From IMG/VR virus record IMGVR_UViG_3300023283_000017, positions 3,370 to 67,369 of that record: 64,000 bases of DNA. One strand, 5' to 3'. The notes beneath the pieces are model-generated. The model had not been told where the DNA came from. It worked only from the letters and a program-made list of their open reading frames with translations, and did no database searches. Positions 1,195 to 33,692 of the stretch are shown piece after piece. The first letter of the stretch is position 1, and every line of letters begins with the position of its first letter. Source of the DNA: a virus (lineage: Duplodnaviria; Caudoviricetes). A program made the translations under genes and the position numbers.

Positions 1195-1395
1195 GCTCTT
1201 CACGCGTGCGCGTGCAGGATCCCACTAAAACACCTTCAACTGATCACCGTCTCTGGAGCAGAGAAGCTCTTCACGCGTGCGCGTGCAGGATCCCACTAAG
1301 AAACGTTCAACTGATCACCGTCTCCAGACGACCTAGAACCGAGATCTACTGAGCACCATCCCGTCGTCATCGGTGCTGTCTTTGCTGTGATGGCT
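1195..1395 (+). repeat. Non-coding element copy A: two 71-bp tandem units (starting 1195 and 1266) plus GTGCTGTCTTTGCTGTGATGGCT (1373-1395)
   Basis: GCTCTTCACGCGTGCGCGTGCAGGATCCCACTAA and TTCAACTGATCACCGTCTC each occur twice with a 71-bp period; homologous to 33575-33692. Confidence 0.9.
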
Positions 1396-1515
1396 AGGGG
1401 TAGTTTGAAAAAATAAAATGAAGTGCATGCGCGCGCATTGTGTGCGCGGCGCGCGCACGCGATAACGACTAATCGCCTCACGTCAAGACGCAGCGATGGT
1501 AGATTTTAAGGTGCA

Positions 1516-1677
1516 CTAACCGGCGTTTTCGATAACGTCGAATGCCTCACGAACCTCGGAGAAGAACTCCGAGACGTAGTGACCAGCGGTGGCGCCCACC
1601 GCAACTGCGACGACCGCCGAGATGGCGAGGCTGAGGAGCCCCGCGACGACCTGAGCCGAGAAGAATCCGTGTCGCAT
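1516..1677 (-). CDS. 53-aa membrane protein, loosely Flp-pilin-like
   Basis: MRHGFFSAQVVAGLLSLAISAVVAVAVGATAGHYVSEFFSEVREAFDVIENAG read by eye; RBS AACGGAAGGGG; directly downstream of the promoter at 1728-1756. Confidence 0.65.
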   Translation of the reverse strand: MRHGFFSAQVVAGLLSLAISAVVAVAVGATAGHYVSEFFSEVREAFDVIENAG

Positions 1678-1727
1678 CGTTCAGTCCCCTTCCGTTGCTT
1701 ACGTAGCCATTGGTGTGCCACCACAGT

Positions 1728-1756
1728 TATATAACTGAGTTATAGCGTCACGTCAA
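1728..1756 (-). promoter_or_regulatory. Sigma70-type promoter TTGACG-N17-TATATA with operator ATAACTGAGTTAT (1731-1743)
   Basis: Exact 17-bp spacing; the palindromic 13-mer lies in the spacer and -10. Confidence 0.75.
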
Positions 1757-1766
1757 TATGTAGACC

Positions 1767-2330
1767 TTATTCTTCAGACACGCCCCTATGCCTGTCCACC
1801 AGCTCGTCCCACTCGCCGCTCTCGATCATGCGACGAAGCGCCGAGTACTCGACGGCAGACAGCTTGACCGAACAACCTGGATCTACTCTATACGGCGGCG
1901 GATCTTGCTCCTGCGAGTAGTGGTGCGGGTCGGCTTGCGCGTGGCGGTCGAAGATGCCCAGGACCATCTCCTGCAGACGATCTCGCACAGCGTCCAGATC
2001 CTTCACCTTCGGCGGACGGTCGTCCACCCACCAGTCGTTCATCTGCGCGTCACGCAGGACGACGAGCGAGCAGATCGCCTTGGTGATGTGCGACAGGCCG
2101 GAATCCGGATCAATGTCCTCACCCTCGATCCACTGTTCGATGTGACCGAGCGCCGCATCCGCGTAGACGGATCCTCGCACGCCTGCCGACCGGTAGTTGT
2201 GGCGTCCGTACTTGACCGCACCTTCGAGCATGCCGACCGCAACTTCCCACATCACCTGACGCGGAACGACGAAGAACTGGCGCCACTTGCGAACGCCAAT
2301 CGCGTCTTTCGGATTCGTGTCTTTCATCAT
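1767..2330 (-). CDS. DUF5664-type dATP/dGTP diphosphohydrolase-domain protein
   Basis: NPKDAIGVRK...GMLEGAVKYGRHNYR...YADAALGH...DPDSGLSHITKA matches the family pattern; start moved to ATG 2330. Confidence 0.75.
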   Translation of the reverse strand: MMKDTNPKDAIGVRKWRQFFVVPRQVMWEVAVGMLEGAVKYGRHNYRSAGVRGSVYADAALGHIEQWIEGEDIDPDSGLSHITKAICSLVVLRDAQMNDWWVDDRPPKVKDLDAVRDRLQEMVLGIFDRHAQADPHHYSQEQDPPPYRVDPGCSVKLSAVEYSALRRMIESGEWDELVDRHRGVSEE

Positions 2331-2431
2331 GGCGTCACCACGCAAGTGAACAAGCCGACGGCGAGAAACGAAAGAAGGACCCAAGGCAAAGCAATTCGGA
2401 TCCTTTCGAAAATGATGATGAACGGGTGCAT
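2327..2431 (-). CDS. 34-aa hydrophobic peptide (MHPFIIIFERIRIALPWVLLSFLAVGLFTCVVTP)
   Basis: GGAGG RBS; stop overlaps the next ATG. Confidence 0.55.
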   Translation of the reverse strand: MHPFIIIFERIRIALPWVLLSFLAVGLFTCVVTP

Positions 2432-2441
2432 AGAACCTCCT

Positions 2442-2804
2442 TCAGATGTCACCACGGCGAGAAAACCATGTCGTTTCCCCGCCAATTTCCTCGATCATGA
2501 AGGAGCCTTTCTGTAGCTCCTCTGTTACAGCACGACCGATTTTGTAGGCGTGGGTCCACAACTCCCGGATGTCACTAGGAAATCTCGGGTAGTTACGAAG
2601 TCCAACCCGAAGCCCTTTCTCGGATCCGCCTGCATATATGTACTTCGTCTTTGTCACAGAAACGCAAAGACCGACGTGGTCAGCATATTGCTGAACCACG
2701 TTCTCTGCTAACGCGTCGTTGAATATAGACCCAGTCGAGACCCAGACGTCGATGCCGTGAGATTCCGCGACGCGGTAACGCCACTCAGAATGGCACTGAT
2801 CCAT
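2442..2804 (-). CDS. Conserved phage hypothetical protein
   Basis: VGLCVSVTKTKYIYAGGSEKGLRVGLRNYPRFP resembles a recurring phage family; start uncertain. Confidence 0.6.
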   Translation of the reverse strand: MDQCHSEWRYRVAESHGIDVWVSTGSIFNDALAENVVQQYADHVGLCVSVTKTKYIYAGGSEKGLRVGLRNYPRFPSDIRELWTHAYKIGRAVTEELQKGSFMIEEIGGETTWFSRRGDI

Positions 2805-3096
2805 CGCCGCCAAAAGGTTTCTTCGGATCGAACCCGTCTCTCTTTCTTGCATTGGCAGTGGCCTCCCGTAGCTCGCGGCGGAGTTTGTCGGGATCGTTCC
2901 ACGTGACGCGCACGAGGCCGAGTCCCAGGTTGAAGATGATGGTCGAGCCTCCGACGTCCACGCCGAACTTGAAGAACCAGCCACCGCCGAACCGCTGGTT
3001 TCCTGAACCTCGCAGACGCCACCCGAAACCTTGCCACGGCCAGCGGTCAGCTTTCATCCACAGCGAGACGAGCGGGACCTTGCGGTAGCCGCTCAT
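2785..3096 (-). CDS. Hypothetical protein, Trp/Gly-rich
   Basis: ORF track; start overlaps the upstream stop. Confidence 0.6.
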   Translation of the reverse strand: MSGYRKVPLVSLWMKADRWPWQGFGWRLRGSGNQRFGGGWFFKFGVDVGGSTIIFNLGLGLVRVTWNDPDKLRRELREATANARKRDGFDPKKPFGGDGSVPF

Positions 3097-3347
3097 GCGT
3101 CACCTCGCACGGCTTTGTAGTGGTCGACGAGATCACGACCGGCGGGAGTGAGCCGCCATTGGTAAGGTGACGTTGACTTGTCCTTGCAGCAATAGCCGAG
3201 CTCCTCTAGCCGCTTGAGCTTCGGGGCGGCCCAGAACCGAGGACGTCCGGCCTTGCGCGAGACATCCGACGCAGCGGACTCCGGCGGCGCGATGCGGTCG
3301 AACTCACCGAGCGCGAGAAGGCAGTCAACCTGCAGGCGCGTCAGCAT
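3093..3347 (-). CDS. Winged-helix DNA-binding protein (MarR-like)
   Basis: AASDVSRKAGR...KLKRLEELGY...WRLTPAGRDL; start set at MLTRLQ after a GGAG RBS. Confidence 0.6.
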   Translation of the reverse strand: MLTRLQVDCLLALGEFDRIAPPESAASDVSRKAGRPRFWAAPKLKRLEELGYCCKDKSTSPYQWRLTPAGRDLVDHYKAVRGDA

Positions 3348-3627
3348 CGGCTTCTCCTTTCTCTCTTTCGCGTAGAGTGCGGATGGCTTTGTCAGTGAGC
3401 GCATACCCGGCGCCCCTAGGCTCGCCGTCTGCTGACCACAGCCCTTTGACGTGCTCGACGATGCCGCGGTCGCGAAGACTGCGCAGGACGCCGCGCGCGA
3501 TCTCGCGAAGAATGGACTGGAAGAAGTTGAGCGAGAAAGCCCGTGCAGGTTCGTAGGTGAAGGCCCGCATGCGCTCGATTAGGCGGATCTCGACCTCGTC
3601 GAGCGGCGACCAGCAGCGACCGATCAT
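3325..3627 (-). CDS. Winged-helix-like protein
   Basis: VLRSLRDRGIVEH...GYALTDKA wing motif. Confidence 0.55.
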   Translation of the reverse strand: MIGRCWSPLDEVEIRLIERMRAFTYEPARAFSLNFFQSILREIARGVLRSLRDRGIVEHVKGLWSADGEPRGAGYALTDKAIRTLREREKGEADADAPAG

Positions 3628-3761
3628 GCAGTGCTCCCCGACTTTGGCCGACCGGCCTGCTCGTGGCGATTGACGGCTGCGAGCATGAGACTGACCAAGC
3701 AGTCTCGGGTGCGTTCGTGGGCGCCGAACTGCATGACCTGACCCTTGTAGGCGATGACCAT
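3624..3761 (-). CDS. Small hypothetical protein (45 aa)
   Basis: AAGGA RBS before MVIAYKG; stop overlaps the next start. Confidence 0.45.
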   Translation of the reverse strand: MVIAYKGQVMQFGAHERTRDCLVSLMLAAVNRHEQAGRPKSGSTA

Positions 3762-3765
3762 GGAT

Positions 3766-4044
3766 CTATCCTTTCCTTGTGTTGATGAGGACCGACCGAA
3801 CGTGCGATCCGGGTTTCTGCTCCATGACGTGCTGCGCCTCAACTGGGCACACACACGCGGTCTCGAGCCGGTCCCCTGTCATGACGCAGTAGAGGGTCGG
3901 GATCGTGGAGAATCCGAGCCACGTCACGGTTGAGAACTCGTCGGTGCCGAGTGAGACGGCGATACGATGCGCCATCCTCAAGCTGTCTATGGAAGGGAAG
4001 ACCTCTTGCATGCTGGCGGTGTGGACGACGCTGTACTTCTTCAT
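3766..4044 (-). CDS. Hypothetical protein
   Basis: GGAG RBS; downstream of the operator at 4100-4112. Confidence 0.65.
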   Translation of the reverse strand: MKKYSVVHTASMQEVFPSIDSLRMAHRIAVSLGTDEFSTVTWLGFSTIPTLYCVMTGDRLETACVCPVEAQHVMEQKPGSHVRSVLINTRKG

Positions 4045-4099
4045 GTTGTTACTCCAGTTGATTGGTCAGCCACGTTGGTAGCACAGCACCACCACGTTG

Positions 4100-4112
4100 A
4101 TAACTTAGTTAT
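4100..4112. promoter_or_regulatory. Operator ATAACTTAGTTAT
   Basis: Copy of the genome-wide 13-bp palindrome. Confidence 0.7.
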
Positions 4113-4540
4113 GAGGAAGCACCCAACTTCTCGACGATGACCTCGGCCATGCGTTTCGCCGAGCCGAGATTCTCTTGCTGATCGAGCACGGCGCGTGGTA
4201 CGCCCTCCACCAGCCAGTTGAACTTGTCCTCGAAAAGGTACCACCCGCCATCGCGAACGCGAACCCACCAGAAGCAACGCCCACCGGCCTGCTGTCGAGC
4301 CATGAGCCAGTTGCGCTGAAGGGCGAGCCGCTGCTCACCTTTCGACCCGAACCTCACCAGCGTTGTCGGTCGCGCGGGTAGCTGCTTGACGAACTTACCC
4401 TCCGCCCAGAACTCGACGCCGCTGACGCAGCCGTTGGTGTCTGGGATACCAGCGGTAAGCTTGTCCTCGATGCGCTGGACATGCACACCCATGGCTTTGA
4501 GATGCGTTCTCAAGGTTCGGGTCGCGTTGGTCTCGGACAT
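4109..4540 (-). CDS. PD-(D/E)xK nuclease, Holliday-junction resolvase/VRR-NUC-like
   Basis: GIPD...FWAEGK catalytic motif and QRNWL...AGG; start set at MSETNA. Confidence 0.75.
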   Translation of the reverse strand: MSETNATRTLRTHLKAMGVHVQRIEDKLTAGIPDTNGCVSGVEFWAEGKFVKQLPARPTTLVRFGSKGEQRLALQRNWLMARQQAGGRCFWWVRVRDGGWYLFEDKFNWLVEGVPRAVLDQQENLGSAKRMAEVIVEKLGASS

Positions 4541-4551
4541 TGCTAGTGCTT

Positions 4552-4929
4552 TCAGAAAAGTGCCGGTTGCATACAGACGAGCCGTTCCTCGTTCTCGCCG
4601 ACGTCCATGCGCGCGAGGGGCTCGCCATCGGTCGACACGAGAACCCAAATCGCGCCGCGTTGTAGCGTGACTCGCTCGTCGTCGATATAGCGCCCGTCGT
4701 CGCCTGTCGGGTTGAACTCGAGGTTGAAGTGGATCTCGCCCCAGGGGTCACCGGCGTCCATAGTGAACGGGTGGTCTTGCGCGTGGACTGGCGTGTTGTG
4801 GAAGCGAAGAGCGAGGTACTCACACTCCTCGGTCTGCTCCTCCAGCGTGAGAACGGCTGGGTCTTCTTTTGGGCCGTCACCCGTCCAGACGACCGTTGCC
4901 AGGACGACGGCTGCACCTTCGATGGTCAT
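4552..4929 (-). CDS. Hypothetical protein (125 aa), hydrophobic N-terminus
   Basis: C-terminal part of track ORF 4552..5403; GGAG RBS before ATG 4929. Confidence 0.6.
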   Translation of the reverse strand: MTIEGAAVVLATVVWTGDGPKEDPAVLTLEEQTEECEYLALRFHNTPVHAQDHPFTMDAGDPWGEIHFNLEFNPTGDDGRYIDDERVTLQRGAIWVLVSTDGEPLARMDVGENEERLVCMQPALF

Positions 4930-5041
4930 TCGAGCCACTCCTTCAAGACGCGATCTTCGATGGTCGTTGGGTCGCCGCGACGTTCGGCGAGAACGGCTTG
5001 TGCGCCCTCGAGCAGTCCCTCTGCTGGCGATAAGAACTCCA

Positions 5042-5629
5042 TCACGGGTCACCTTTGGCGAAGACGAACTCGTTGAGCCAGAACCGAACGAACTCGCCTT
5101 GCGCGATGGCGTCCGCGAGCGCGTTGTGTACCGTGATGTTGTGGTAAGCGCGGTCCTTGAGTGCACACAAGCGCCTTTCACGTGGCTCGTCGAACTCACA
5201 CAAGGTCGCCAGCACGTCCTCAAGCGTGCGTAGGTCTCGGTGCTTGCGATACGGGATAGGCGGCTCGACGCCGAACGACTCAGCGAGGCTCTCGATGATC
5301 GCGCCGTCGAACGCCGGTCCCTTCGTGTAAACGGGCGGATAGCCCTCGCTCTTGAGCCACCCGCGCAGCATCTCGATGGCGACGGCCGGAGGCACGTCCT
5401 CACCGATGAACGCGTCGAGCTGAGCTTGGCCCTCCTTGGCCATCCACCACTTGAGCGTGTCAGCTGACACGTGGCGCCCGGCGTCGATCTGCGACTGGAC
5501 GTCGAGGTTGACGGAGAAGGTTCGCTCGGAGCTGCCGTCGAGCGACACGGTGCACGCGCCGATGGAAAGGATGACCGCGTCCTTGTGAGTGGACAGGGTC
5601 TCGATGTCTAGTGAGACGGCAAGCGTCAT
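5042..5629 (-). CDS. DEDDh 3'-5' exonuclease (Rv2179c/DUF5051-like)
   Basis: LDIETL, ILSIGA, TLKWW, FDGAII, RDLRTL, HNALADA motifs. Confidence 0.8.
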   Translation of the reverse strand: MTLAVSLDIETLSTHKDAVILSIGACTVSLDGSSERTFSVNLDVQSQIDAGRHVSADTLKWWMAKEGQAQLDAFIGEDVPPAVAIEMLRGWLKSEGYPPVYTKGPAFDGAIIESLAESFGVEPPIPYRKHRDLRTLEDVLATLCEFDEPRERRLCALKDRAYHNITVHNALADAIAQGEFVRFWLNEFVFAKGDP

Positions 5630-5722
5630 ATTGGTTCTCCTACTTAAGCTGTGGTTGCTTTCCTTACAGGAAGGGTCATCAATTGCCTTCCGTAATCTCG
5701 GCTAGTATGGTCGGGTTATCGC

Positions 5723-6184
5723 TCATTTCATCCTCATCATGAGCAACAACGCCGCCAGGGGCGCAGACACGAGCCACAAGCCACCGGGCAGCGGGACGGG
5801 CGCCGTAACCGGGTCGGGCGGGCGCCGGATTAGCTCGGTGCCAGGCTCGTGAACACGGTGCCAGCGGTAGAACACCGTCGCCCACTTTTCCTGCGGCAGG
5901 TGCAGTGGGTCGTCGTAACCGTGAAGCTTGGCAAAGGCGTCGCGGTCGAGCGGCATCGGCTCGTCGGCGCAGGTCGGCGGCAGGCGCGCACCTTTCGCCC
6001 CTGCCCAGGTATCGGGAAGATCAAGTGCTCCTTCCCGGATGCACACGTCATGATAGGGGTCGCTACTCACGGCATTGTAGCTCGCTGGCCACGCGACGAA
6101 GTTGGCGCCGATTTCAGCGCCGACGTAGAACCAGATAGCGCACAGCGCCGAGATACCAAGGCACTCCGTTCGGGTCATCACCAA
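5723..6184 (-). CDS. Exported protein with a VPLPA-CTERM-type exosortase signal
   Basis: N-terminal hydrophobic signal; C-terminus APVPLPGGLWLVSAPLAALLLMMRMK. Confidence 0.7.
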   Translation of the reverse strand: MVMTRTECLGISALCAIWFYVGAEIGANFVAWPASYNAVSSDPYHDVCIREGALDLPDTWAGAKGARLPPTCADEPMPLDRDAFAKLHGYDDPLHLPQEKWATVFYRWHRVHEPGTELIRRPPDPVTAPVPLPGGLWLVSAPLAALLLMMRMK

Positions 6185-6194
6185 CTTCCTTCTA

Positions 6195-6815
6195 CTACTG
6201 AGGCGGCAGTTGCAGGCTCGCGTTGAGATCGTCCCGCTTCACCGCGAGCAGGACTGCCTTCTTCTCGCCGGCGTTGCGGTACTTGTTCGCGAACGCGGCG
6301 ACCTCGGGCCAGAACTCGATGAGCTTGTCCACGGTCGATGCGGCCTCGAGGGTCTTGACCGCAGGAGCCATGGCGCGATGGATCTCCTCCGTGAGCTTGT
6401 CGCGCGCGTGCTCGAGGGTCTCGAACTTGCGCGCGAACTTGCACCCAGCATCATAGACGGCGGCGACGTTGCCCGTGGTCATGTAGTAAGGAATCCGACG
6501 GCCGCCTTGACGGCCGGGCGTCTTCGCCTTCGCCGTTTCCCACGGTTGCGGCAGGAACCGCGTCAAGCCAGCGGACAGCGACAGCATCTTGACCTGGCCC
6601 GCGATCATGACCTTGAACTCGTCGCGCTGCGGGAAGAACCCGTCGGGCTCGGCATTGAGCATTGCCTCGTGACCTTTGAGCACGTCGTCAAGCACGAGGT
6701 TGGTGAAGTCGGTCTCCTCGGTGATCTGGCTGCGGATGCGGTCGAGGAACGCGTGCTCGAGAATATCGCTGAGGATCGCTTCCCGGACGCGGATGTTGAG
6801 GCGAGTTGATGCCAA
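6195..6815 (-). CDS. Nmad5-like protein (nucleotide-modification-associated domain 5)
   Basis: N-terminal TRLNIRVREAI and C-terminal STVDKLIEFWPEV match the family pattern; TTG start after GGAG. Confidence 0.65.
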   Translation of the reverse strand: MASTRLNIRVREAILSDILEHAFLDRIRSQITEETDFTNLVLDDVLKGHEAMLNAEPDGFFPQRDEFKVMIAGQVKMLSLSAGLTRFLPQPWETAKAKTPGRQGGRRIPYYMTTGNVAAVYDAGCKFARKFETLEHARDKLTEEIHRAMAPAVKTLEAASTVDKLIEFWPEVAAFANKYRNAGEKKAVLLAVKRDDLNASLQLPPQ

Positions 6816-6929
6816 GATGTTCTCCTTGGTGCAGCGGCTTAGCGTGCTGCGCAGCCTTTTGGGTTTCGGGGTTGTGCCGCGTCGTCATAGGGCACAGTGA
6901 ACCGCCGCCTGAGCGACGAGATGAGCGCG

Positions 6930-7382
6930 TCAGATGACGCCAGTGGCAGAAAGGGCCACGTAGATGACCGCGCACCAGAAAGCGACGACGCCGAACACTA
7001 GGGCGATGACGCCGGCTCGGATCGAGCGGATCTCAGGTTTGGTGGCCGGCGGCAGTTCAGGCTCTCGCGACGCGCTCTGCTGGAACAGGAACCCCTTGGC
7101 CATCCGCTTCGACCAGCTCGGGTCGAGCATCATCTCAACGTCATCCTGGGACGCGATGTCCAGAAGGATCTTCTCTGCTCGCTGGCACCGATGCTCGAGG
7201 CCCTGTAAGCGGGTAGCGGCCTCGGCCGCGAGCGTCTCTGCGACGTGCTCACCGATGCAGACGCCATTCTCCTCGTCCGCGCCTGGGAAGTTGCGCTGGT
7301 CATCCTTGAACCACGGGTAGCCGAGAGCTTTGCCCAGCTCCTGCTGTATTTGGTCCTCTAGATCGTAGAGATCCTTGCTCAC
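6930..7382 (-). CDS. Hypothetical protein with a C-terminal TM helix
   Basis: GTG start after GGAG at MSKDLY; C-terminal VIALVFGVVAFWCAVIYVALSATGVI. Confidence 0.6.
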   Translation of the reverse strand: MSKDLYDLEDQIQQELGKALGYPWFKDDQRNFPGADEENGVCIGEHVAETLAAEAATRLQGLEHRCQRAEKILLDIASQDDVEMMLDPSWSKRMAKGFLFQQSASREPELPPATKPEIRSIRAGVIALVFGVVAFWCAVIYVALSATGVI

Positions 7383-7383
7383 G

Positions 7384-7650
7384 TCACTTCTCCTCTGGGA
7401 AAGCCGACCGCAGTGCCCGAGACACCAGCCGCCAGACGTTGTAAGATAGCCGGGGATAGTCGCTGACCTCCCCGGTTCGTTGAGGTCTTGCCCACGTCGC
7501 GCGGATGTTGTCCGCGTCTCTCTTGTTTGCCACCTTGGCGGTGTAGTTACCGCGTTCTGCGGTGCCACCGACGTTGGCGATGATCATCTGACCCAGACGG
7601 GTCACGCCACCCGTCCGAGCCGAATAAAGGTCAATCGTCACGACCAACAT
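7384..7650 (-). CDS. Conserved phage hypothetical protein
   Basis: ORF track; AGGA RBS; NVWRLVSRAL C-terminus. Confidence 0.65.
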   Translation of the reverse strand: MLVVTIDLYSARTGGVTRLGQMIIANVGGTAERGNYTAKVANKRDADNIRATWARPQRTGEVSDYPRLSYNVWRLVSRALRSAFPEEK

Positions 7651-9256: not shown

Positions 9257-9309
9257 GTCAGTCTCCGTTGCTCGGTTGATCGGTAAAGCCGCAGCGCGAC
9301 CTTACCAAA

Positions 9310-9338
9310 CGTATAACCGAGTTATTGCCCGACCGCAA
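9310..9338 (-). promoter_or_regulatory. Promoter TTGCGG-N17-TATACG with operator ATAACCGAGTTAT (9313-9325)
   Basis: 17-bp spacing; upstream of the helicase gene. Confidence 0.7.
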
Positions 9339-9357
9339 CCGGTCGCTGTAAGCTTGC

Positions 9358-9819: not shown

Positions 9820-9894
9820 CGTGTTACTCCGTCGGTTGGGTCGCCCTAGCATATTGCCAGGGCGACGGTCAGGCATCAAGTAATCCTTGAGGAC

Positions 9895-10479: not shown

Positions 10480-10490
10480 GTCGTCCTCCC

Positions 10491-10793: not shown

Positions 10794-10820
10794 TGTAGGT
10801 TGCTCCGTTGCTTCGTTGAT

Positions 10821-10855
10821 ATAACCAAGTTATATCCGAGGACACCGGATTGCAA
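10821..10855 (-). promoter_or_regulatory. Promoter TTGCAA-N17-TAACTT with operator ATAACCAAGTTAT (10821-10833)
   Basis: Same architecture as 61975-62009; CGTTTAAACG abuts the -35 at 10857-10866. Confidence 0.7.
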
Positions 10856-24376: not shown

Positions 24377-24406
24377 GGTAAGTCTCCGTTGCTTGAGGTT
24401 GATGGA

Positions 24407-24619
24407 TCAGCGTGCGGTGTAGCCGCAATGAGTGGCGGCAAGTTCAGGATTGCACCGCACGAATTGCGCAAGGTCGAGTTCCTTGTGCATCTGCGCTTGG
24501 CTGTCGAAGTGCGGTGACACGCGCTCAATCAGTCGCAGACCTTCTTTCGGAGTGATCTGCTTCGCAGCCATCGCTGCGTAGACCTTGTTGGCATAGGTTG
24601 CGGCTTTGCGACTGGTCAT
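24407..24619 (-). CDS. Small early hypothetical protein
   Basis: AACGGAGG RBS; first gene after the promoter at 24638-24674. Confidence 0.65.
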   Translation of the reverse strand: MTSRKAATYANKVYAAMAAKQITPKEGLRLIERVSPHFDSQAQMHKELDLAQFVRCNPELAATHCGYTAR

Positions 24620-24637
24620 GTCGTGTCCTCCGTTGCT

Positions 24638-24674
24638 ATAACTAAGTTATATGCGACGAAGGAGGCGGGTGCAA
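24638..24674 (-). promoter_or_regulatory. Promoter TTGCAC-N17-TATAAC with operator ATAACTAAGTTAT (24638-24650)
   Basis: 17-bp spacing; the operator covers the -10 and start region. Confidence 0.75.
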
Positions 24675-24703
24675 CCGGAAGTCGCACCCGCTACCTGAAA
24701 AGT

Positions 24704-25150: not shown

Positions 25151-25734
25151 CAGAGGTGCTCCTTGAGATTCAGCTCACCCCAGTGGGTGAACCAGGTGAT
25201 GCCGTTCGCACTGGCGTCTGAGCGCTGCCGGCTGTTGTGCGACGTTTGCCGCATGAAGGTTTTGTGCCCCGCACGGACCCCGATCAACGCGTTCTTGAGG
25301 TTGTCCTCAACCCAGATGCAGGGAGGGTTGAACGCGCGAAGAATCTGCTCCTTCGATTGACCGAGGTCGAGGCAGATGACGGAGTCGAAGACGTCCCCAA
25401 AGTGCTTCTGCAGGTTTGCTTTGCGCATCTGCACTGTAAACCAGTCGCTAGAGCAGGAGGTTACGACGTGCAGGCGAGCCCCTCCTTCATACAAAGAGGC
25501 GATGGCTGGTTCGGCACCCTCTACCGGTGGTAGGTCACCGAACGCGCGCGACGAGTTGAAGTCTTTGATTAGCCGGGCCGTATGTTGAGGATCCGTGCCG
25601 AGCCAGTCGTCCAGGACCCACTCCTGCGGACCACGCGGACAGATGTAGCGTTCAAGTGTGCTGCTGCAGTGGGCCTTGAACCCTTCGAGCCAGTTCAGAA
25701 GAACGTCATCGCAGTCAAGAAGAACAGTTTTCAC
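25150..25734 (-). CDS. HAD-family 5'(3')-deoxynucleotidase-like hydrolase
   Basis: LLDCDDVL (DxD), VTS, WVEDNLKN. Confidence 0.8.
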   Translation of the reverse strand: MKTVLLDCDDVLLNWLEGFKAHCSSTLERYICPRGPQEWVLDDWLGTDPQHTARLIKDFNSSRAFGDLPPVEGAEPAIASLYEGGARLHVVTSCSSDWFTVQMRKANLQKHFGDVFDSVICLDLGQSKEQILRAFNPPCIWVEDNLKNALIGVRAGHKTFMRQTSHNSRQRSDASANGITWFTHWGELNLKEHL

Positions 25735-27248
25735 ATCAGTATCCTTTCTACCCGGTAGTTGGCTCTCGCCTTTGAGTCAAGGAAAATGAGCCGGTTTCTC
25801 GCGCGCGACATGCCAACGAACAGTGCGCGGAGCTCTTCAGGGGACTGGTCGATCCACGACTGGTAAGTTCGCGCCGTCAGCTTCTGCCACAGCACGACGT
25901 TGTCTGCTTCGCCACCTTTTACCGCATGGATGGTGGAAGCTGTTATGCGAGGTGGCGCTATCAGGCTCTCGTCGCGCGCTCGCATGGCCTGGATGTATTC
26001 GCGCATACCGGCAGAGATCGAGAGAGTGTCGAGCCAAGAGGCGGACGCGTCGAAACCGGTGCAGCACAGGTCAGCGAGCGAATATGTCTCAGACGCGTCG
26101 AACACGGGCGCTGAGCTGGGGCGATTGCGGGCCGGGATGTGTTCCCAGACGTTGCGAAGCGCGTCGCCGGTGAACCGCTTACCTTTTCGAAGGTTCTCGT
26201 AGACGAGAACGGCCTTGACTGACGGAGTGTCTACCGACGACTGCATACCGTCCTTGGTAGGGGACCAATAAGGAAATCCTTCTTGGCGAAGCCACTTGGT
26301 CAGCGAGCGCACTAGCGCGTTTGTTCGCGCAAGCAGATACCACGTGCCTTCTTTCATGTCTAGTGAGTCGAGGCTGGTGGTGTAGTCGACGTCTCCGCCT
26401 TCTACACCAGGCTCCCAGTCTTTCGGGTACCGATCCTGCACAAGAGATATGACCTTCTCGCACGCACTATAGGTTGCGCGATTGAGTCGATAAGACACAG
26501 GCAAGACGCGCCGGTCGGCGTCTAGGTTCAAGAAGTGTTGTATGTCGGCTCCGGCCCACGTGTAAATAGCTTGGTCGTCGTCACCAGCGAAATATACGTC
26601 GCGCGCATTCTCCATCATCTTCTCGACCATGCGCCACTGCAACGTTGACAAGTCTTGAGCCTCGTCCACGATGAGCAGCTCAAAACTGGGAACGCTGGCC
26701 TCCTTGTCGAAACGCTCGATCATGTCGGTGAAGTCCACGACGCAAGCTTCTTCCTTGAACTCCTGAAAGTCGTCGGCGATCTTCCTGACGTAGGCAAGCT
26801 CTAGACCAAGATCGACGGTGACGTCTTCCAGTGGTTTGCGCTTGATACGCGACAGCGAGATAGCGTTTAGTGCTTCTTCGTCGGTTGTCCTTGCTGCCGG
26901 GATGACCTGGTCAAATTCGTCGATCCACTCCTCTGACAGGTTCAACCCTTCGGCCTTAGCATACTCGCGCAACTTCACGTTGTCGAGAATCTGGGACCTG
27001 TCCGCATCAATGTGTGAGAACGCGAACGAGTGCAGTGTCTTGAAGTGTGGTATTTCCTCTTGTGAGATGCCGAACTTCTCGACCATGCGAGATCGCGCCT
27101 CCTGCGCAGCTTTGCGCGTGAAGGCGACAAAAGCGATCCTGTCTGGTGGCACACCGTCCGCGAAAGCCTTCTCGACGATCTCGAGCAACGCGGTCGTTTT
27201 GCCGCACCCAGGTCCGCCCAAGATGAGTGTCGGTCTAATCCTCCCCAT
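25731..27248 (-). CDS. SF1A UvrD-like helicase
   Basis: GGPGCGKTT, FTRKAA, TLHSFA, DEAQDLS, GDDDQAIY, TIHAVKGGEADNV. Confidence 0.9.
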   Translation of the reverse strand: MGRIRPTLILGGPGCGKTTALLEIVEKAFADGVPPDRIAFVAFTRKAAQEARSRMVEKFGISQEEIPHFKTLHSFAFSHIDADRSQILDNVKLREYAKAEGLNLSEEWIDEFDQVIPAARTTDEEALNAISLSRIKRKPLEDVTVDLGLELAYVRKIADDFQEFKEEACVVDFTDMIERFDKEASVPSFELLIVDEAQDLSTLQWRMVEKMMENARDVYFAGDDDQAIYTWAGADIQHFLNLDADRRVLPVSYRLNRATYSACEKVISLVQDRYPKDWEPGVEGGDVDYTTSLDSLDMKEGTWYLLARTNALVRSLTKWLRQEGFPYWSPTKDGMQSSVDTPSVKAVLVYENLRKGKRFTGDALRNVWEHIPARNRPSSAPVFDASETYSLADLCCTGFDASASWLDTLSISAGMREYIQAMRARDESLIAPPRITASTIHAVKGGEADNVVLWQKLTARTYQSWIDQSPEELRALFVGMSRARNRLIFLDSKARANYRVERILM

Positions 27249-28989
27249 CTTCGTCGGTATCTTCGCGTTCGACCGCCATGAGAGACTCGAGGTCTTGTAG
27301 CCAGACGATATAGGGTTCAATCTGCTTGTTGCCTCGGTGGGTGTTCTTACCTACTTTCACACCGAAGTCGCTTCTCAGGATGTCGGAGATGATGGACTTC
27401 TGGACGTTGATTCCGTTAGCCCTGACGAGATCCGTGAAAGACCCTAACTTGAACTCGAAGTAGGTGCCGTCGGGCGTGTCAACGCGCAGTGCGCGCCCGG
27501 CGTGGATGCCCGCGTCGTTCTTGCCTTTCTCAATACCTTTATTGGTCACGAAGTCGTAGAGAAGGTTGAGCAGATCAGACCTCAAGTCGGTCCCCGGCGC
27601 AGGTTCAACCGTGTCTGCTTTCGCCAGTAACCGACCGATCATGTCTCGGAACTTCTGTTCCTGCATTGTTGGCCACATCTCGTCTGTGTCGTTGATCACC
27701 TTCCTCGCAAAAGCGGATTGCGAGTACAGCGTCTCGACGTCCGGGATATGCACTCGCTTCCCGTTCACGTTAAGGTAGTATTGTTTGTCCTTAGACTGGA
27801 CGATAGTGAACCCGGAGATCTCGGACTCGTCGTTTTGCCCAGTTCCAACGCCAAAGCGACGCTTGAGGCACAGCTTACGATTGCAGAAGGACTTAAGTGG
27901 GTCTTTTGTGCACTGGTACCCCCACTTGCCTTTCGCCCCTTGGTTTGCCAGTCGCTGCATAGCGGCGTCACCGAGACCCTTAGTCTCTGAGTCCCAGTCA
28001 GAACCGTGCAATAGCATGCCCCAGTGACCTTGGGCCTCGCTGAGCTTCGCGTAGAGGTGCGTTGCGTCAACGTTAGCGTCTGCATCGTTCTTGGACATGC
28101 GTCGCCTAAGATACAGGGCGACGTTGAAGAACGTCACATCACGCGCGCCTTCACGCAATTGCGGATATGTCAACTCCATCTTCTTGCGGTATTGATCTTC
28201 GTTAATCACTCCTTCGCGAAACTCCTTCTCGATCCTCTCACGCTGCTCGGGACGGTCTGAGCAAAGCGTCTGCAGGCAAGGAGGTCCGTCCTTGAAAAGG
28301 GCTGTCTGGTCTCCGTCGGCCCTTTGGTCCTTAGCTCCCGGGTTCGTGTTCTCGCGAAGATAGTCGTCCGTGACCAGAGCAGCTTGCGCCTCTGCAAGGT
28401 CGAGGAACTGCTCAAACTCGATTTCCAGGAACTCATAAACGGATCCCTTACGGTTCGGAACGACCGCGCGTCGCGTGTCGCCGAAGTAGGGCAGGTTGAT
28501 CCAGTTGCCGGTATCGCCTTCGCTGTGACGTTCGGTCTGCTTTGGAAAAATCTCGGAGCTCGACACACCCAGCATGGCTGCATGAGACTTGAGGTAGTTC
28601 GCTGCAAGCTTGGCCGACACGCCCTCGGCCGAGAACAACCATACGTGGATGCCGCCAGACTTGGAACGAGTCAAGATCAGTGGGGTGTCGAATAATGCGA
28701 GTGCGACGTCTTCATGGGTCAGCTTCTTCTGTTCTTTTTCGGCCTGACCGTAGACGTCGATGTCTATCGCCGCGAAATTGACGCGGTCGTCTTCCTTCAA
28801 CGGGATGACGCCAATACCGACCCGTCCTTCGACGTGCGACGTATAGACCTCCTGCGTGATGGCCTCGTCTGCCGTTCTCGCACGGCCCGCGACTTTCTCT
28901 CCGGGTTCCACGGATCCCGTTATGTCATAGCGCCCATAGCGCTTTGAGTACCCTTGGAAAAGGCGTGCGAAACGTTCGGCGTTTGTCAA
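27235..28989 (-). CDS. AEP-superfamily primase(-polymerase)
   Basis: IDID, RSKSGGIHVW, EIFPKQ, GNWINLPYF, PPCL; TTG start after GGGAG. Confidence 0.8.
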   Translation of the reverse strand: MTNAERFARLFQGYSKRYGRYDITGSVEPGEKVAGRARTADEAITQEVYTSHVEGRVGIGVIPLKEDDRVNFAAIDIDVYGQAEKEQKKLTHEDVALALFDTPLILTRSKSGGIHVWLFSAEGVSAKLAANYLKSHAAMLGVSSSEIFPKQTERHSEGDTGNWINLPYFGDTRRAVVPNRKGSVYEFLEIEFEQFLDLAEAQAALVTDDYLRENTNPGAKDQRADGDQTALFKDGPPCLQTLCSDRPEQRERIEKEFREGVINEDQYRKKMELTYPQLREGARDVTFFNVALYLRRRMSKNDADANVDATHLYAKLSEAQGHWGMLLHGSDWDSETKGLGDAAMQRLANQGAKGKWGYQCTKDPLKSFCNRKLCLKRRFGVGTGQNDESEISGFTIVQSKDKQYYLNVNGKRVHIPDVETLYSQSAFARKVINDTDEMWPTMQEQKFRDMIGRLLAKADTVEPAPGTDLRSDLLNLLYDFVTNKGIEKGKNDAGIHAGRALRVDTPDGTYFEFKLGSFTDLVRANGINVQKSIISDILRSDFGVKVGKNTHRGNKQIEPYIVWLQDLESLMAVEREDTDEDGED

Positions 28990-29053
28990 GACGTTCTCCC
29001 AGTTGCTAAACGTCACGGGCGACACGTTTAAACGTGCCGCCCGAAGTGCTCGA

Positions 29054-29929
29054 TCAGAATGGTACTTCGCCGCTGTCGTCGGTGTCGGCCGACGAGGGGT
29101 CGACCGGGTTCTGCTCGCCCTCGGCTTTCGAGAAGTCGACCTGGTGCTCGCCGGCCTTGACGCCTTCCAAGAACGACTTGGCTTCGTGGAACAGGTCCAT
29201 CCGGCCTTCGGTGACCACGTCCGAATACTTCTCGAACTTCCAGACGTACCACGACCCCTGGTCGTTGGTGCGCTGCTGCGTCGTCACGTTCCAAAGAGCG
29301 AAGAAACGCGGTGGCTTGCGCCCGTCAGGGAGACGCTGCTTGTCGATCATCGCATTGAAGTCCTTGGACGGCTTGATCTGGGTCGAGGCCATGGTCAAGA
29401 CCGCCGGCCAGAACGAGCCATCGGACTCGATGACGAACACGAAATGGGTGTGTGTATCGTTGAGCTGGTTGCCCGGCGTGCCGACGGGGCTGCCTTCCTG
29501 GATGATGTCCAAGTTGGACTCGTTGCGTCGCGTGATCGCGCCGAGGCCGGCCTCGACGGGATGCTCCTGAATGAAACCGCCGCCTTGCGAACGAGGAACC
29601 CACTCGATGAAGGACCGCTTGTAGTGGATCGGCAGGATCCGCACGCCGGTCGTCGGGTTGTCGTCATCGTCGCGCGTCTTCCAGAGCTCTTGCGTGACCG
29701 TGTTGAACAGGTCGGAAGGCTCGGCGCCCTTGATGAACTCGGGCTTGCCCTTCGTGCACTGCGGCGAAAGCTGCTGCAAGATCTGCAGGAAGGGAATGGA
29801 CATATCGTCCTTGCTCATCGTCTCCTGGTGCTGTTCGCCGGCGCTGGCGAGCTCATCCAGAAATTCGGCAGGGAGTTGGGTTTCCTTGGGCTTCGACACC
29901 GCAGTGCCTGCCTTCTTCGCTTCGGCCAT
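29054..29929 (-). CDS. Probable single-stranded DNA-binding protein
   Basis: IPFLQILQQLSPQ, FIEWVPR, MASTQIKPSK, NDQGSWY; acidic tail ending in F; next to the primase. Confidence 0.7.
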   Translation of the reverse strand: MAEAKKAGTAVSKPKETQLPAEFLDELASAGEQHQETMSKDDMSIPFLQILQQLSPQCTKGKPEFIKGAEPSDLFNTVTQELWKTRDDDDNPTTGVRILPIHYKRSFIEWVPRSQGGGFIQEHPVEAGLGAITRRNESNLDIIQEGSPVGTPGNQLNDTHTHFVFVIESDGSFWPAVLTMASTQIKPSKDFNAMIDKQRLPDGRKPPRFFALWNVTTQQRTNDQGSWYVWKFEKYSDVVTEGRMDLFHEAKSFLEGVKAGEHQVDFSKAEGEQNPVDPSSADTDDSGEVPF

Positions 29930-29954
29930 CAGAAATCTCCTTCTTGGACCTTCG

Positions 29955-30497
29955 TTACTTCACCGTTGCTTTGGTGAATTGGAACGCACCGAAGATAGAC
30001 AAGTCGTCGGACTTGCCTTGCGCGATGCGCGTGCGGAGCGCCTTCTTCACAGTGGCCGTTGGTATGTCTTCCTCCACCGATGCCTTGACGCCCATCTCCT
30101 CCGCAGCAGACAGAAGCGCTTTCGCTGCGTTGTCGTTGCCGCGGCCTAAGTCGGCGGTGAGCTTGTTGCTGACCGCCGCATCATAGCCCCAGGACCGCAT
30201 GATCGAGATGACCGAGGTCTTGTGCTTCCGCGGAACCGAAACCTTGAGATCTTCTTCATAGGAAACGGTCATCCCGTTGTCGAGCTTGAAGCTACCAATG
30301 CCGGCGGCTTTCAACGCCGCGGGCAGTTCGTTCTCTTGCACGCGGCGCAGTTGCTCTTTCGCGTCCTTCAGCGAGGACTCGATCTTCGAGACCTCAGCCT
30401 CCAGTTCGAGTTGCTTGGTCGCGAGAGCGCGAACGTCGGCAAGATCGGTAGAAGGCTGCTGACCAGCCTCTGCGAGTTCGTCCAGGTCGTGGTGCAT
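29955..30497 (-). CDS. Conserved coiled-coil replication-region protein
   Basis: LEAEVSKIE...ELPAAL...SFKLDNG; start set at MHHDLD after AACGGAG. Confidence 0.65.
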   Translation of the reverse strand: MHHDLDELAEAGQQPSTDLADVRALATKQLELEAEVSKIESSLKDAKEQLRRVQENELPAALKAAGIGSFKLDNGMTVSYEEDLKVSVPRKHKTSVISIMRSWGYDAAVSNKLTADLGRGNDNAAKALLSAAEEMGVKASVEEDIPTATVKKALRTRIAQGKSDDLSIFGAFQFTKATVK

Positions 30498-30511
30498 GTT
30501 GTCTCCGTTTG

Positions 30512-30859
30512 TCAGTGGTCGAACAGTTGAATAGACACCGGTGCGTAGGCGCGCACAGCGCGATCCCACATCAGGTAGTTGAACTTTCCGTCGGTGTAGT
30601 CGGCAAGGATGCTGGCTGCGATAACCATACCGAGAGGATCACCACCGGCCCAGACGATAAAGTCACCGCTGTTTGCTTCGGAAAGGACGCGATGAGCCCT
30701 GTCGATGGCTCGCTCACGATCTCGAACTGGAGGCGGATTGTCCGCGGTGAAGATGTAGACGACTTCTCCAAACATAGAAGCCGGGCTTACGTCGTAGGTT
30801 GCGCGACCTTCAGGCACGCGACTCTCATCGGGCTCGTTGACGATAAATACTTTTGTCAT
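30512..30859 (-). CDS. Conserved phage hypothetical protein
   Basis: DVSPASMFGE, GGDP, LMWDR...Y pattern; AACGGAGG RBS. Confidence 0.7.
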   Translation of the reverse strand: MTKVFIVNEPDESRVPEGRATYDVSPASMFGEVVYIFTADNPPPVRDRERAIDRAHRVLSEANSGDFIVWAGGDPLGMVIAASILADYTDGKFNYLMWDRAVRAYAPVSIQLFDH

Positions 30860-30894
30860 CCGTTGTGCCTCCGTTGTGTTGCTGTTCTACGTAC

Positions 30895-32664
30895 TCAAAC
30901 GCTTTCGGTCAACCACGACTTCAGAACGTCACCTGAAACTGCGGCGGACACGTCGCGCTTGTCCTTGAGTGCGCGCAACTGCGGCCTGTCTATCGTCCCT
31001 AGGCACTCGAGGTCGGTGATGGTGCAAGTACCGTTCTGACCGATGCGGTGAAAACGATCCTCGGACTGAAGGCGCAATCCTAGGTTGAAGGAGTTGTCAA
31101 AGTAGATCATATCCTGAGCTTGAACCAGGTCGATGCCAGTGCCGGCCGACATTGGGTTGCCTAGGAAGAACTTACAGTTGCCTTCTTGGAACTTCTGCAG
31201 GTTTCGTGCTTTCTGGTCGGCGGAAACGCCACCATGGTATTCGACAACCGACGCCTCGCCATATGCCTCGCGCACAGCAGCCGCGATCTCACGCAGACAG
31301 TAGCGCTTGTGTGACCAGATGATGCCCATGCCGCTGATCTTCTCCAGCTCCTGCATCAGTGCACTGATGCGTGGGTTGCTGTCGTCAAGCGGTATCCCCG
31401 GAACGTCCTCAGCCATCGGGTCTGCATCGTCAGGAACAACGAACCCGCAAGCGATCTGCTGCAACCTGACCAGCTTCGTCATCGCCATGGTCGCCGTCAT
31501 CGTTTGACCACTCTCGAGCTCGACGAGAAACTCCTCGCTCATCGACTTGTAGGCTTTGCGCATCGCTTCGGTCATCTCGAAGGAGCGCATCCGGTAGGTC
31601 TTATCCGGTAGGTCCAAGCAGTCGGCTTTAACAAGCCTTGACCTGAATGGGTCAAGCATCTTCCTGAGCTCTTCCTCGTTCTTGAACCCGGTGACCGTGG
31701 TGACAGGTTTCTCAACCTTCCGCGACTTCTTCGTCGTCTTGTCGTACTCCCACGTCTCATAGGTCTTGTCGCCGACTTGCTCTTCGACCGCAAAGTGTGC
31801 CTTGAACGCATGGTAAGGCATATTCTGCACGATCTTCGCATCCAGGAACGTGTACTGGGACCATGCGTCGAGCGTCGAGCCGGTGGACAGTGTGCCGGTG
31901 GTGATGTAGCGGCGCTCCGCCATCTTTCCGAGTTTCATGACCGTTTTGGTGACGGCCGCTCCCGGTGTCTTTATGTGGTGGGACTCATCGACGACGATGG
32001 CAGCTTTGCGCGAGCGAAGGAAACGCTCGCAGAACTTCTTTCCTTTGGCGCGGTGCACAGACTCGAAGTTGATGGTCGCCACAGCGAAGCGGTCGCTCTT
32101 GTCGATAGCAGTCCGGCTGCGCGTGTTAGATCCATACCACATGCCAGCGTCAACGCGATCCGGGTTCCAGAAGGCCGCGTGCCATTTGCGTTTAGGAAAG
32201 TGAGTCGGAACCTCGTTTTCCACCCATTTGCGGTGAACACCTTTCAGCGTGATGACTAGAAGAGCATCAATCTCTCCTTTCGCGTAGAGCCATTGACACA
32301 CATCTAGAATCGTCTTCGATTTACCTAAGCCCATCTCCCACTCGAGCGCAAAGTAAGGTAGATCTTTGATATTTGACCACCACTCACGCTGGTGGTCGTA
32401 GGGCTCGGTCACGAACTCGAACTCGACGGGCTCCTTTTTCTGCGGCTTGTAGAAGTGTGCCCACGCGAAACGGCACCCAGAGTGGAAAGCATCCTTCCCT
32501 AGCTCCTCAACCAAGGTGTCGAGCGCGTACCGAGTGGGAACGAACAGGAGCCGATTACCATGGTACTCAACGGTTGTGTTTAAACGATCACCGACGCGTC
32601 GGGACTCATCGTAGTCGAGCCCCTCGACGACGCCACGCGAGTTCTCAACCAGAACCTCAGGCAT
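30895..32664 (-). CDS. SF2 SNF2-like helicase
   Basis: PYDHQ, EMGLGKS, DESHHIK, TGT, GTGIDL, QSEDRFHRIGQ. Confidence 0.92.
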   Translation of the reverse strand: MPEVLVENSRGVVEGLDYDESRRVGDRLNTTVEYHGNRLLFVPTRYALDTLVEELGKDAFHSGCRFAWAHFYKPQKKEPVEFEFVTEPYDHQREWWSNIKDLPYFALEWEMGLGKSKTILDVCQWLYAKGEIDALLVITLKGVHRKWVENEVPTHFPKRKWHAAFWNPDRVDAGMWYGSNTRSRTAIDKSDRFAVATINFESVHRAKGKKFCERFLRSRKAAIVVDESHHIKTPGAAVTKTVMKLGKMAERRYITTGTLSTGSTLDAWSQYTFLDAKIVQNMPYHAFKAHFAVEEQVGDKTYETWEYDKTTKKSRKVEKPVTTVTGFKNEEELRKMLDPFRSRLVKADCLDLPDKTYRMRSFEMTEAMRKAYKSMSEEFLVELESGQTMTATMAMTKLVRLQQIACGFVVPDDADPMAEDVPGIPLDDSNPRISALMQELEKISGMGIIWSHKRYCLREIAAAVREAYGEASVVEYHGGVSADQKARNLQKFQEGNCKFFLGNPMSAGTGIDLVQAQDMIYFDNSFNLGLRLQSEDRFHRIGQNGTCTITDLECLGTIDRPQLRALKDKRDVSAAVSGDVLKSWLTESV

Positions 32665-33502
32665 GCTCGTTGCACACCACAACAGGAACGCCGAAGTCCC
32701 CGGGCTTGGTGGTCATATCGTAGAAAGCAGTAGGCGCATAAGCTTGGACGATGTCCAGGATCTCGCACGCAAGGCGCCGAATCTCGAGGTCTGCGCCGGC
32801 GCCTCCACGAAGCCAAAGGAAGTGACGAAGAAGTCGCAGGTTCGGCGTCCACAGGAGCCGCGTCTCGGCCGCGTTCGGCAGGTGGGATCGAGCCGCTTCG
32901 TTCGCGCGCTTCCTGATGGTGGTAATCGACGTGACGCCTGGCGAGTTTTCCTTCATCGCGCGGGCGAGGTCGTTGTGCAGCTCCTGGTAGTTCTTGCGCG
33001 ACTCCTCGCACTGAGAAGCAAATTCGACCATGAGCGGATGTTTCGCGTGAGCGCCGCCGCAGATATGAGCGAGAAGCGGTGGGACCACGAAGTTCATGGA
33101 TTTGGACGGGACGTAGCGCTGCGACTCCTGAGAGATAGCGACGCCGACACGGTGGCGCACCAGCTCGTGGGTCAGGCTGCGCGACACGCCCTGGATGGTC
33201 AGGTTGATGCTGGAATGCTCGAGCACCGAACCGTGCCCCATCTCGATGATGTTCTTGATGTAGTCCTCGCGAGTGCGCCCCGCGTCCCAACTGCGGTAGC
33301 AGTGACGGCCGCCGAACTCGGCCATACGCTCGAGGGCGAAGTCATCGTCGGCGTCCTCCCACAGCTTGGCGAGCGGCGTTTGCGCGTCGGGCAGCATGTG
33401 CAGATCAAGCGCGTTGTGGTGCATCCACTCCATGAGTCCCGTCTCGTTGAACTTGGTCTGACCGATGACAGTGACGTGCGGGCTCCAGATCAGGTCAGTC
33501 AT
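32657..33502 (-). CDS. thyX: FAD-dependent thymidylate synthase
   Basis: GHGSVLEH, VSRSLTHELVRHR, SQESQRY, RSHLPNA, NLR; start set after AACGGAGG. Confidence 0.95.
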   Translation of the reverse strand: MTDLIWSPHVTVIGQTKFNETGLMEWMHHNALDLHMLPDAQTPLAKLWEDADDDFALERMAEFGGRHCYRSWDAGRTREDYIKNIIEMGHGSVLEHSSINLTIQGVSRSLTHELVRHRVGVAISQESQRYVPSKSMNFVVPPLLAHICGGAHAKHPLMVEFASQCEESRKNYQELHNDLARAMKENSPGVTSITTIRKRANEAARSHLPNAAETRLLWTPNLRLLRHFLWLRGGAGADLEIRRLACEILDIVQAYAPTAFYDMTTKPGDFGVPVVVCNEHA

Positions 33503-33574
33503 GTATCCTCCGTTAGTATCGTCCCAGTTCGTAACCGTTCGCGTGAGCGCGTGCAAGTTGTTTCCGAGAAACGC

Positions 33575-33692
33575 TCAACTGATCACCGTCTCCAGAGCAG
33601 CTCTTACGCGCGCGCGTGCAGGATCACCCTAACTGACCTTCAACTGATCACCGTCTCTGAAACTGGGAAGTGCTGTTTTTGCTGTGATGGCT
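33575..33692 (+). repeat. Non-coding element copy B, homologous to 1195-1395
   Basis: TCAACTGATCACCGTCTC twice (33575, 33640), GCGTGCAGGATC, GTGCTGTTTTTGCTGTGATGGCT (33670-33692). Confidence 0.9.

Follow-up and report, generated by a model that had tools for sequence, protein, structure and literature searches.

Class I activator-dependent sigma70 promoters carry an upstream site near −61.5, as for CRP at lac, and T7-type phage promoters are virus repeats that carry promoters. Paired elements at operon heads are found in phages lambda (nutL/nutR) and HK022 (putL/putR), where they act as RNA hairpins, and T4-type origins combine a promoter and an origin in one site. Intergenic repeats of halovirus HF2 are reported to have been shown to carry promoters (PMC8707807), and the genome of the siphovirus SPP1 contains two similar non-coding direct-repeat regions, oriL and oriR, that lie far apart (PMC6316719). 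In this study two repeat-rich non-coding loci, A and B, were analysed in a 64,000-nucleotide (nt) stretch (the window) of the Caudoviricetes record IMGVR_UViG_3300023283_000017. A first-pass annotation had offered iteron-like origins, phage-specific promoter/enhancer arrays or recombination sites as interpretations, a proposal that was upheld in part, with promoter/enhancer arrays as the best-supported option. The cassettes at the two loci are real and functional, and their architecture is conserved across a phage group. The loci are read as a paralogous pair of promoter-control cassettes to which lineage-specific factors encoded by the phage would bind, a reading given about an even chance of being correct; the HF2 repeats that carry promoters were counted in its favour as a precedent.

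The 18-mer TCAACTGATCACCGTCTC was present at positions 1236, 1307, 33575 and 33640, confirming exactly four copies, two per locus and all on the plus strand. No further match with up to three mismatches was found in the genome, where the expectation was 0.08 and none of 100 shuffles reached four copies. The 18-mers are spaced by 65 and 71 bp and belong to a repeat unit of ~66–71 nt that is present in two tandem copies at each locus, on the minus strand. At locus A these are unit A1 (1188–1258; nhmmer E=7e-10), consisting of the 18-mer at 1236–1253, an AT-richer stretch of 24 nt and a CG tract at 1201–1216, and unit A2 (1259–1329; E=1e-10), in which the 18-mer with its TGATCA box at 1307–1324 is followed by 24 AT-richer nt and a CG tract at 1272–1287. 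At locus B they are unit B1 (33528–33592; E=1.6e-4), with the 18-mer at 33575–33592 and TGATCA at 33580–33585, and unit B2 (33592–33662; E=1e-8), with the 18-mer at 33640–33657, 24 nt and a CG tract at 33605–33620. The 12-mer, the 23-mer and the neighbouring CG tracts described in the first pass were all found at the positions claimed. GCGTGCAGGATC was located twice in locus A (1210 and 1281) and once in locus B (33614), and the two copies of the 23-mer (1373–1395 and 33670–33692) differ by one mismatch. On the minus strand the locus A copy reads AGCCATCACAGCAAAGACAGCAC, which contains ACAGCA twice with a 9-nt spacing, and the same ACAGCA pair is contained in the locus B copy. Next on the plus strand are the distal alternating tracts, CG/CA at 1423–1461 in locus A, with equivalents in the relatives, and CG at 33723–33759 in locus B, both assigned to the minus strand. 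The genome contains five alternating purine-pyrimidine runs of at least 15 nt, all five within loci A and B. Identity between the two loci is confined to short patches of ≤24 nt between diverged spacers, and this patchiness looks like the result of selection on several binding sites and not like a recent copy.

Neutral duplication, a mobile repeat or a functionless assembly error is an extremely improbable explanation, having in its favour nothing beyond the sequence being repeated. It is contradicted by the orthologous pairs of loci that three isolates and numerous relatives from metagenomes possess, and the assembly-artefact possibility raised in the first pass was dispelled by a separate 28.7-kb Logan contig that crosses locus B, matches it without a single difference, has even depth and contains no joints. 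A DNA search of a phage collection with both loci gave no match, an exact scan of IMG/VR for the 18-mer found none, and 596 Gb of bacterial genomes yielded seven single matches without any cassette around them, which is at chance level given an estimated expectation of ~17. A mobile repeat of the miniature inverted-repeat transposable element (MITE) or repetitive extragenic palindromic (REP) kind was rejected, as each genome has exactly two loci, whose positions are orthologous, and the matches of the 18-mer in bacterial genomes are single and at chance level.

The window covers bases 3370–67369 of the 67,369-bp record, the ends of which overlap by 127 bp, and the genome was therefore taken to be a circular assembly of ~67.2 kb. 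The nearest relatives of this marine, Nanhaivirus-like roseophage are Nanhaivirus-type siphoviruses, the Dinoroseobacter phages R5C and R26L, together with Pseudanabaena phage Pan1, all sharing ~73% DNA identity with the window over the replication genes. Nearly all genes of the window are carried on the minus strand, and along that strand locus A is followed by the gene of a 153-amino-acid (aa) protein, small genes, terL, structural, tail and lysis genes and a divergent helix-turn-helix (HTH) gene. Locus B comes next, followed by thyX, a SNF2 helicase, an AEP primase, 7-deazaguanine genes and DNA polymerase, and the order closes with a MazZ-like pyrophosphohydrolase and a small membrane open reading frame (ORF) before locus A is reached again. 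The locus B block thus comprises thyX, replication and 7-deazaguanine modification, and the locus A block packaging and structural functions. As the first pass had stated, locus B lies directly upstream of thyX (32657–33502, minus strand; Pfam Thy1 E=1.4e-48), with which the nucleotide-metabolism/replication block begins. The corresponding statement that locus A lies upstream of terS held for position only: the locus precedes the 153-aa ORF (594–1055, minus strand), a conserved protein that aligns with those of the relatives and is a homologue of R5C gp015, and the name terS was supported by no sequence or structure search. Sequence and profile searches of Pfam, PHROGs, NCBIfam and the PDB gave no match to this protein, and an AlphaFold2 model built from nine sequences had a pLDDT (predicted local distance difference test) of 64 and no Foldseek match. 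The 153-aa family is invariably the first gene past locus A in the phages compared, and terL lies ~2.3 kb beyond it (L001:1711–3153).

The comparison with relatives that had been suggested showed the twin arrangement in all three cultured phages, R5C, R26L and Pan1, each with an equivalent repeat pair upstream of thyX and of the 153-aa gene homologue, with which the packaging block begins. The repeats shared by loci A and B are lineage-specific and differ from phage to phage, being TATAGATCATAGACAAAAT in R5C, TGCAGGGCGTGCAGGGT, CTTCGGGAGTGATCA and GTCGCGCGTGCGCA in R26L, and a 23-mer, TGCAGGGTGCAGGGT, TGGATGATCA and GTGCGCACGCG in Pan1. Within the four genomes the longest string shared by A and B was 24, 19, 17 and 23 nt; between genomes it was ≤13 nt, and shuffles reached at most 11–13 nt. 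Published papers on R5C, R26L and Pan1 contained no mention of promoters, intergenic regions or intergenic repeats.

Seven further packaging-side (A) and ten further thyX-side (B) loci were collected from IMG/VR and metagenomes, and one block order in gene direction was common to all of them. Block 1 is an alternating CG/CA tract, block 2 consists of two or three short iterons with a 7–9 nt spacing, block 3 is an AT-richer spacer, and block 4 is a second cluster of iterons, whose orientation is direct or inverted depending on the phage. Block 5 is a GATC box, [A/T]GATC[A/T], with a lineage-specific extension, block 6 comprises 21–25 AT-richer bases, and block 7 is a second alternating CG tract of 16–23 nt. 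Blocks 5–7 form the unit, of which a cassette contains one or two, typically with a CG tract of 16–18 bp. The iterons are of the types TGCAGGG, TGCAGCAGC, GCATCACC, TTGGTGC or GCATGCCG according to lineage, and the type agrees between A and B wherever both loci are known, counting three same-sample contig pairs whose origin from one phage each is not demonstrable. In the window the 23-mer is the local iteron pair, taking the place of the TGCAGGG pairs (7–9 nt spacing) of the relatives, and the 71-nt unit represents blocks 5–7 doubled in tandem. An nhmmer profile of blocks 5–7 gave matches confined to the A and B loci of the four genomes (296 kb): four in the window, among them B1, which had not been used for training, and two each in R26L and Pan1, with R5C giving none. 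The recognition sequences thus co-vary between the two sites of a genome and differ between lineages, which points to a phage-encoded specificity factor.

The promoter geometry was clearest on the thyX side. In 10 of 13 B loci the pattern [A/T]GATC[A/T]-N21–24-TTGCnn-N17/18-TAnnnn was found, ending 25–44 nt before the thyX ATG, and the second CG tract was on this basis assigned as the spacer of a sigma70-type promoter; the pattern occurred in none of the 11 A loci. The contig of one relative, L002, carries no thyX. The −10 element of the B loci varies but keeps its leading TA, with TACGTT, TAATTT, TAAGTT, TACAAC, TAACTT, TATAAC, TATTGT and TAAGTA observed. In unit B1 of the window the −35 is TTGCAC (33551–33556), the CG spacer is 17 nt long (33534–33550) and the −10 is TACGAA (33528–33533), 25 nt before the ATG. 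By the features of sigma70-type promoters, namely a −35-like hexamer, a spacer of 16–18 bp, a −10 of TAnnnT form and co-orientation with the gene, B1 is the predicted thyX promoter, and if transcription starts ~7 nt downstream of the predicted −10 its TGATCA is centred at about −61.5. Consensus scans for promoters and terminators called nothing useful inside the cassettes, and unit B1 was missed by the promoter scanner because its hexamers match weakly. The part of the promoter/enhancer proposal that stood is the proximal unit of locus B, with its conserved sigma70-type layout, CG-tract spacer and 18-mer/GATC box upstream. The presence of host-type hexamers in the cassette suggests use by the host RNA polymerase.

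The packaging side is arranged differently. All 11 A loci have their own predicted promoter of the form TTGACG-like-N17/18-TATAAG(CGAGTTAGG), 25–87 nt before the start codon, and the packaging-side cassettes, which preserve the unit geometry with poor hexamers, lie ~100–130 bp upstream of it. In the window the predicted packaging-block promoter (1089–1127, minus strand) has the −35 TAGACG (1122–1127), an 18-nt spacer and the −10 TATAAG (1098–1103), the latter inside the operator-like TATAAGCGAGTTAGG (1089–1103), and units A1 and A2 are ~150 and 220 bp upstream. The 13-mer ACCTTACTTACTG (1129–1141, minus strand) is located just upstream of the −35, with an inverted copy at 33775–33787 beside the operator on the HTH side of locus B; at its place the relatives have a related GGwCCTT..CTGG segment.

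In the proposed mechanism the cassettes would head the two main co-directional gene blocks, replication/modification at B and packaging/structural at A. The proximal unit of locus B would itself be a host sigma70-type promoter with a 17-bp CG spacer, the GATC box near −61.5 would occupy the classic place of an upstream activator, and a UP-like stretch may lie between the box and the −35. One or more lineage-specific phage DNA-binding proteins would bind to both loci at their 18-mers and iterons, and through such a shared binder the two gene blocks would be switched together, by activation or repression. From these arrangements we infer protein binding, the start sites and co-regulation. Compared with CRP-dependent class I promoters such as lac, unit B1 has the same succession of −35, 17-bp spacer and −10 with a UP-like stretch and a box ~61.5 bp upstream, a layout seen in 10 of the 13 B loci. 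It differs in the alternating-CG spacer, in the asymmetric, lineage-specific 18-bp box, in the additional iterons and second CG tract upstream, and in the duplication of the whole region at a second locus without good hexamers. The likeness to T7-type promoters and to the class I/II repeats of HF2 is that non-coding repeats specific to one virus head transcription units; unlike in those systems, the cassettes described here are composite, ~250–300 bp long, and limited to two loci per genome.

Several observations weigh against the promoter-control reading. Units A1, A2 and B2 have no usable −35/−10 pair (CTGCAC-17-CGTTCT, TTCTCT or GCTCTG), with only weak xAAxxx elements past the CG tract, and the conservation of tract and spacing in these units despite the poor hexamers suggests a role beyond the core promoter. 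The 18-mers of locus A are too distant upstream for simple contact activation, the R5C cassette is diverged and lacks the GATC-N-CG pattern, and the iterons with their AT-richer stretch also resemble an origin. An all-against-all comparison of the ORFs in the four genomes was too noisy to single out a binding protein. Among sequencing runs, the one listed as containing this phage is the probable source sample, and none of RNA is listed.

An RNA-level function would place nut/put-like antitermination elements, acting as leader RNA on RNA polymerase, at the two operon heads. Two copies heading two long co-directional blocks would suit such a role, as would the GC hairpin and U-run found upstream of the units in locus A. 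The T-run concerned (1403–1423), which follows block 1 on the minus strand, is however terminator-like in this phage only and is not conserved in the relatives. Predicted RNA folding was no better than that of shuffled sequences (z = −0.9 and −0.2), Rfam gave no match at E values up to 1, and the predicted promoter of locus B lies downstream of most of the cassette. The orientation of the iteron clusters switches between phages, direct in one and inverted in another, a behaviour better suited to sites in DNA than to RNA stems. The resemblance to lambda nut and HK022 put lies in the pairing of elements at the start of two operons, where those elements coordinate expression; in contrast to their hairpins, no conserved fold was found here and the repeat orientation is variable. 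This explanation is considered very improbable, and the RNA element was rejected as a candidate for lack of an Rfam match or fold signal and because the repeat orientation flips.

A second class of sites was recognised around the cassettes. An operator had been noted near each locus in the first pass, and sites of the TATAAC-N3-GTTATA type were indeed found at 1089–1103, 1730–1744 and 33797–33811. The palindrome occurs 9–17 times per genome in the window phage, R5C, R26L and Pan1, often within TTGACG-N17-TATAAs, and in sequence resembles an operator joined to a promoter −10; further sites in the window are at 9312–9326, 10820–10834, 24637–24651, 53745–53759 and 61996–62010, and TATAAGCGAGTTAGG is a variant of it. 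The operator/promoter box of locus B, TATAACTCGCTTATG at 33797–33811, lies between locus B and the divergent Cro-like HTH gene (33844–34047, plus strand; weak matches to HTH_19 and to a PHROG regulator), and is conserved in R5C, R26L, Pan1 and IMG/VR relatives. The Cro-like HTH protein probably binds this conserved palindrome.

Comparison of R26L with R5C separated this regulator from the cassettes. The two phages share a 16-kb structural block with 90% DNA identity, and their HTH copies are 89% identical. The exact end of the block is the side of locus B that faces the HTH gene and the operator, homology restarting at 72% at thyX. Both cassettes of R26L are of the Pan1-like TGCAGGG type, and its replication and packaging genes are also closer to those of Pan1. 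Since R26L shares its HTH with R5C and has Pan1-like cassettes, the Cro-like HTH is not the reader of the lineage-specific repeats, and the mosaic composition of R26L indicates that the replication/packaging segment and the type of cassette are passed on together. By alignment, locus B is also a mosaic junction between R26L and R5C.

The position of locus B at the exact end of the 90%-identical block, with 72% homology after it, counts in favour of the repeats being recombination or pac sites, which would be bound by a recombinase or small terminase and whose direct repeats could delete or exchange the 32-kb module. The P1 pac site is built on TGATCA/G hexamers, so that the GATC-type hexamers offer an analogy for the pac version, and the packaging block does lie downstream of locus A. 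However, locus A does not mark the opposite end of the stretch of high identity between R26L and R5C, the two copies are half a genome apart with the second at thyX, remote from the packaging genes, and the 153-aa protein beside locus A is without a terminase signature. The contigs showed even depth and neither joints nor sub-genomic forms, and identical patches of ≤24 nt are a poor substrate for homologous exchange; the module-excising recombination sites suggested in the first pass accordingly found no support, and pac or recombination sites are regarded as distinctly improbable. A GATC methylation switch like that of P1 was likewise unsupported, a methylase search of the genome having found no Dam, D12 or N6/N4 family.

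Replication origins are a more serious alternative to promoter control, although still rather unlikely. In this case both loci would have their iterons and 18-mers bound by an initiator of the phage, which might be the AEP primase or a partner protein; one locus would fire, and the other would either fire as well or be a bound roadblock, the arrangement proposed for SPP1 oriL/oriR. The repeats comprise iteron pairs or triplets at 7–9 nt and 18-mers at 65 and 71 bp, to which an initiator might bind, and the lineage-specific direct repeats accompany an AT-richer stretch between GC-rich tracts. Cassette type and replication segment are passed on together, and an AEP primase is encoded (27235–29025, minus strand) whose N-terminal domain is conserved at 53–74% identity among relatives, the AEP-TOTE domain being residues 50–185, and whose middle and C-terminal tail are highly variable (18–35% for this phage). 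The unit copies that do not form promoters are likewise conserved, and it is for this reason that the origin explanation was retained. Against it, the extremes of cumulative GC and AT skew are away from A and B in all four genomes, and the cassettes contain the stretches of highest AT content in the genome only in locus A of the window and in R5C, not in Pan1 or R26L. The repeats are few, and their 65- and 71-bp spacing is out of helical phase. Across 11 phages the primase C-terminus did not cleanly follow the iteron class, Pan1 and L049 being 51% identical with different iterons and Pan1 and R26L 53% identical with the same iterons, and the conserved −35/−10 geometry of locus B would be unexpected for a pure origin. 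What remained of the first-pass suggestion of iteron-like origins was the existence of short lineage-specific iterons; a consistent AT-rich unwinding element, a skew switch and clean co-variation with the primase were not found.

Like SPP1 oriL/oriR, loci A and B are paired, distant repeat regions, and one of the SPP1 regions is intergenic, bracketed by transcription signals and adjoining late genes (PMC6316719). Unlike in SPP1, an AT-rich unwinding element was not consistently present here, neither an origin-binding protein nor a DnaB-type helicase or loader was seen, and the units carry promoter geometry. By analogy with T4-type origins, a cassette could combine a promoter with an origin. 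An elaboration of this, which is considered unlikely, is that each locus is promoter and origin at once within a two-site replication system, in which a lineage-specific initiator at both borders couples replication to the programme switch and the CG spacers and iterons may sense 7-deazaguanine modification. If this were true, the G-rich iterons and Z-DNA-prone CG spacers would be read differently on modified incoming and unmodified new DNA, giving a modification-sensing timer.

Returning to promoter control, there has been essentially no work on how roseophages and their relatives regulate their genes, and the results provide a testable regulatory map for this phage group. The map has two promoter classes, the TATAAC-N3-GTTATA box present many times per genome and the elaborate cassette, of which there are exactly two copies, one heading the replication block and one the packaging block. 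R5C and R26L infect one host and have different cassettes, which makes swap experiments possible. Alternating-CG promoter spacers are unusual, and because the phage replaces guanine in its DNA they raise the question of feedback from modification on transcription or replication.

Other features were observed near the two loci. A predicted membrane protein of 53 aa (1516–1677, minus strand) is encoded just upstream of locus A, as is Pan1 gp94, and its gene has its own strong predicted promoter, TTGACG-17-TATATA, over the operator at 1730–1744. Beyond this lies the gene of the MazZ-like dATP/dGTP diphosphohydrolase domain protein (Pfam PF18909; 1767–2384, minus strand), for which the best PHROG is labelled 'endolysin; inhibits RNA polymerase'; this label, also carried by the R5C homologue, is probably a misannotation. 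Three tandem 60-nt units are located at 34699–34878, between a 352-aa tail-region gene and spanin-like genes, each able to form a GC-rich hairpin, and the Logan contigs break at this position.

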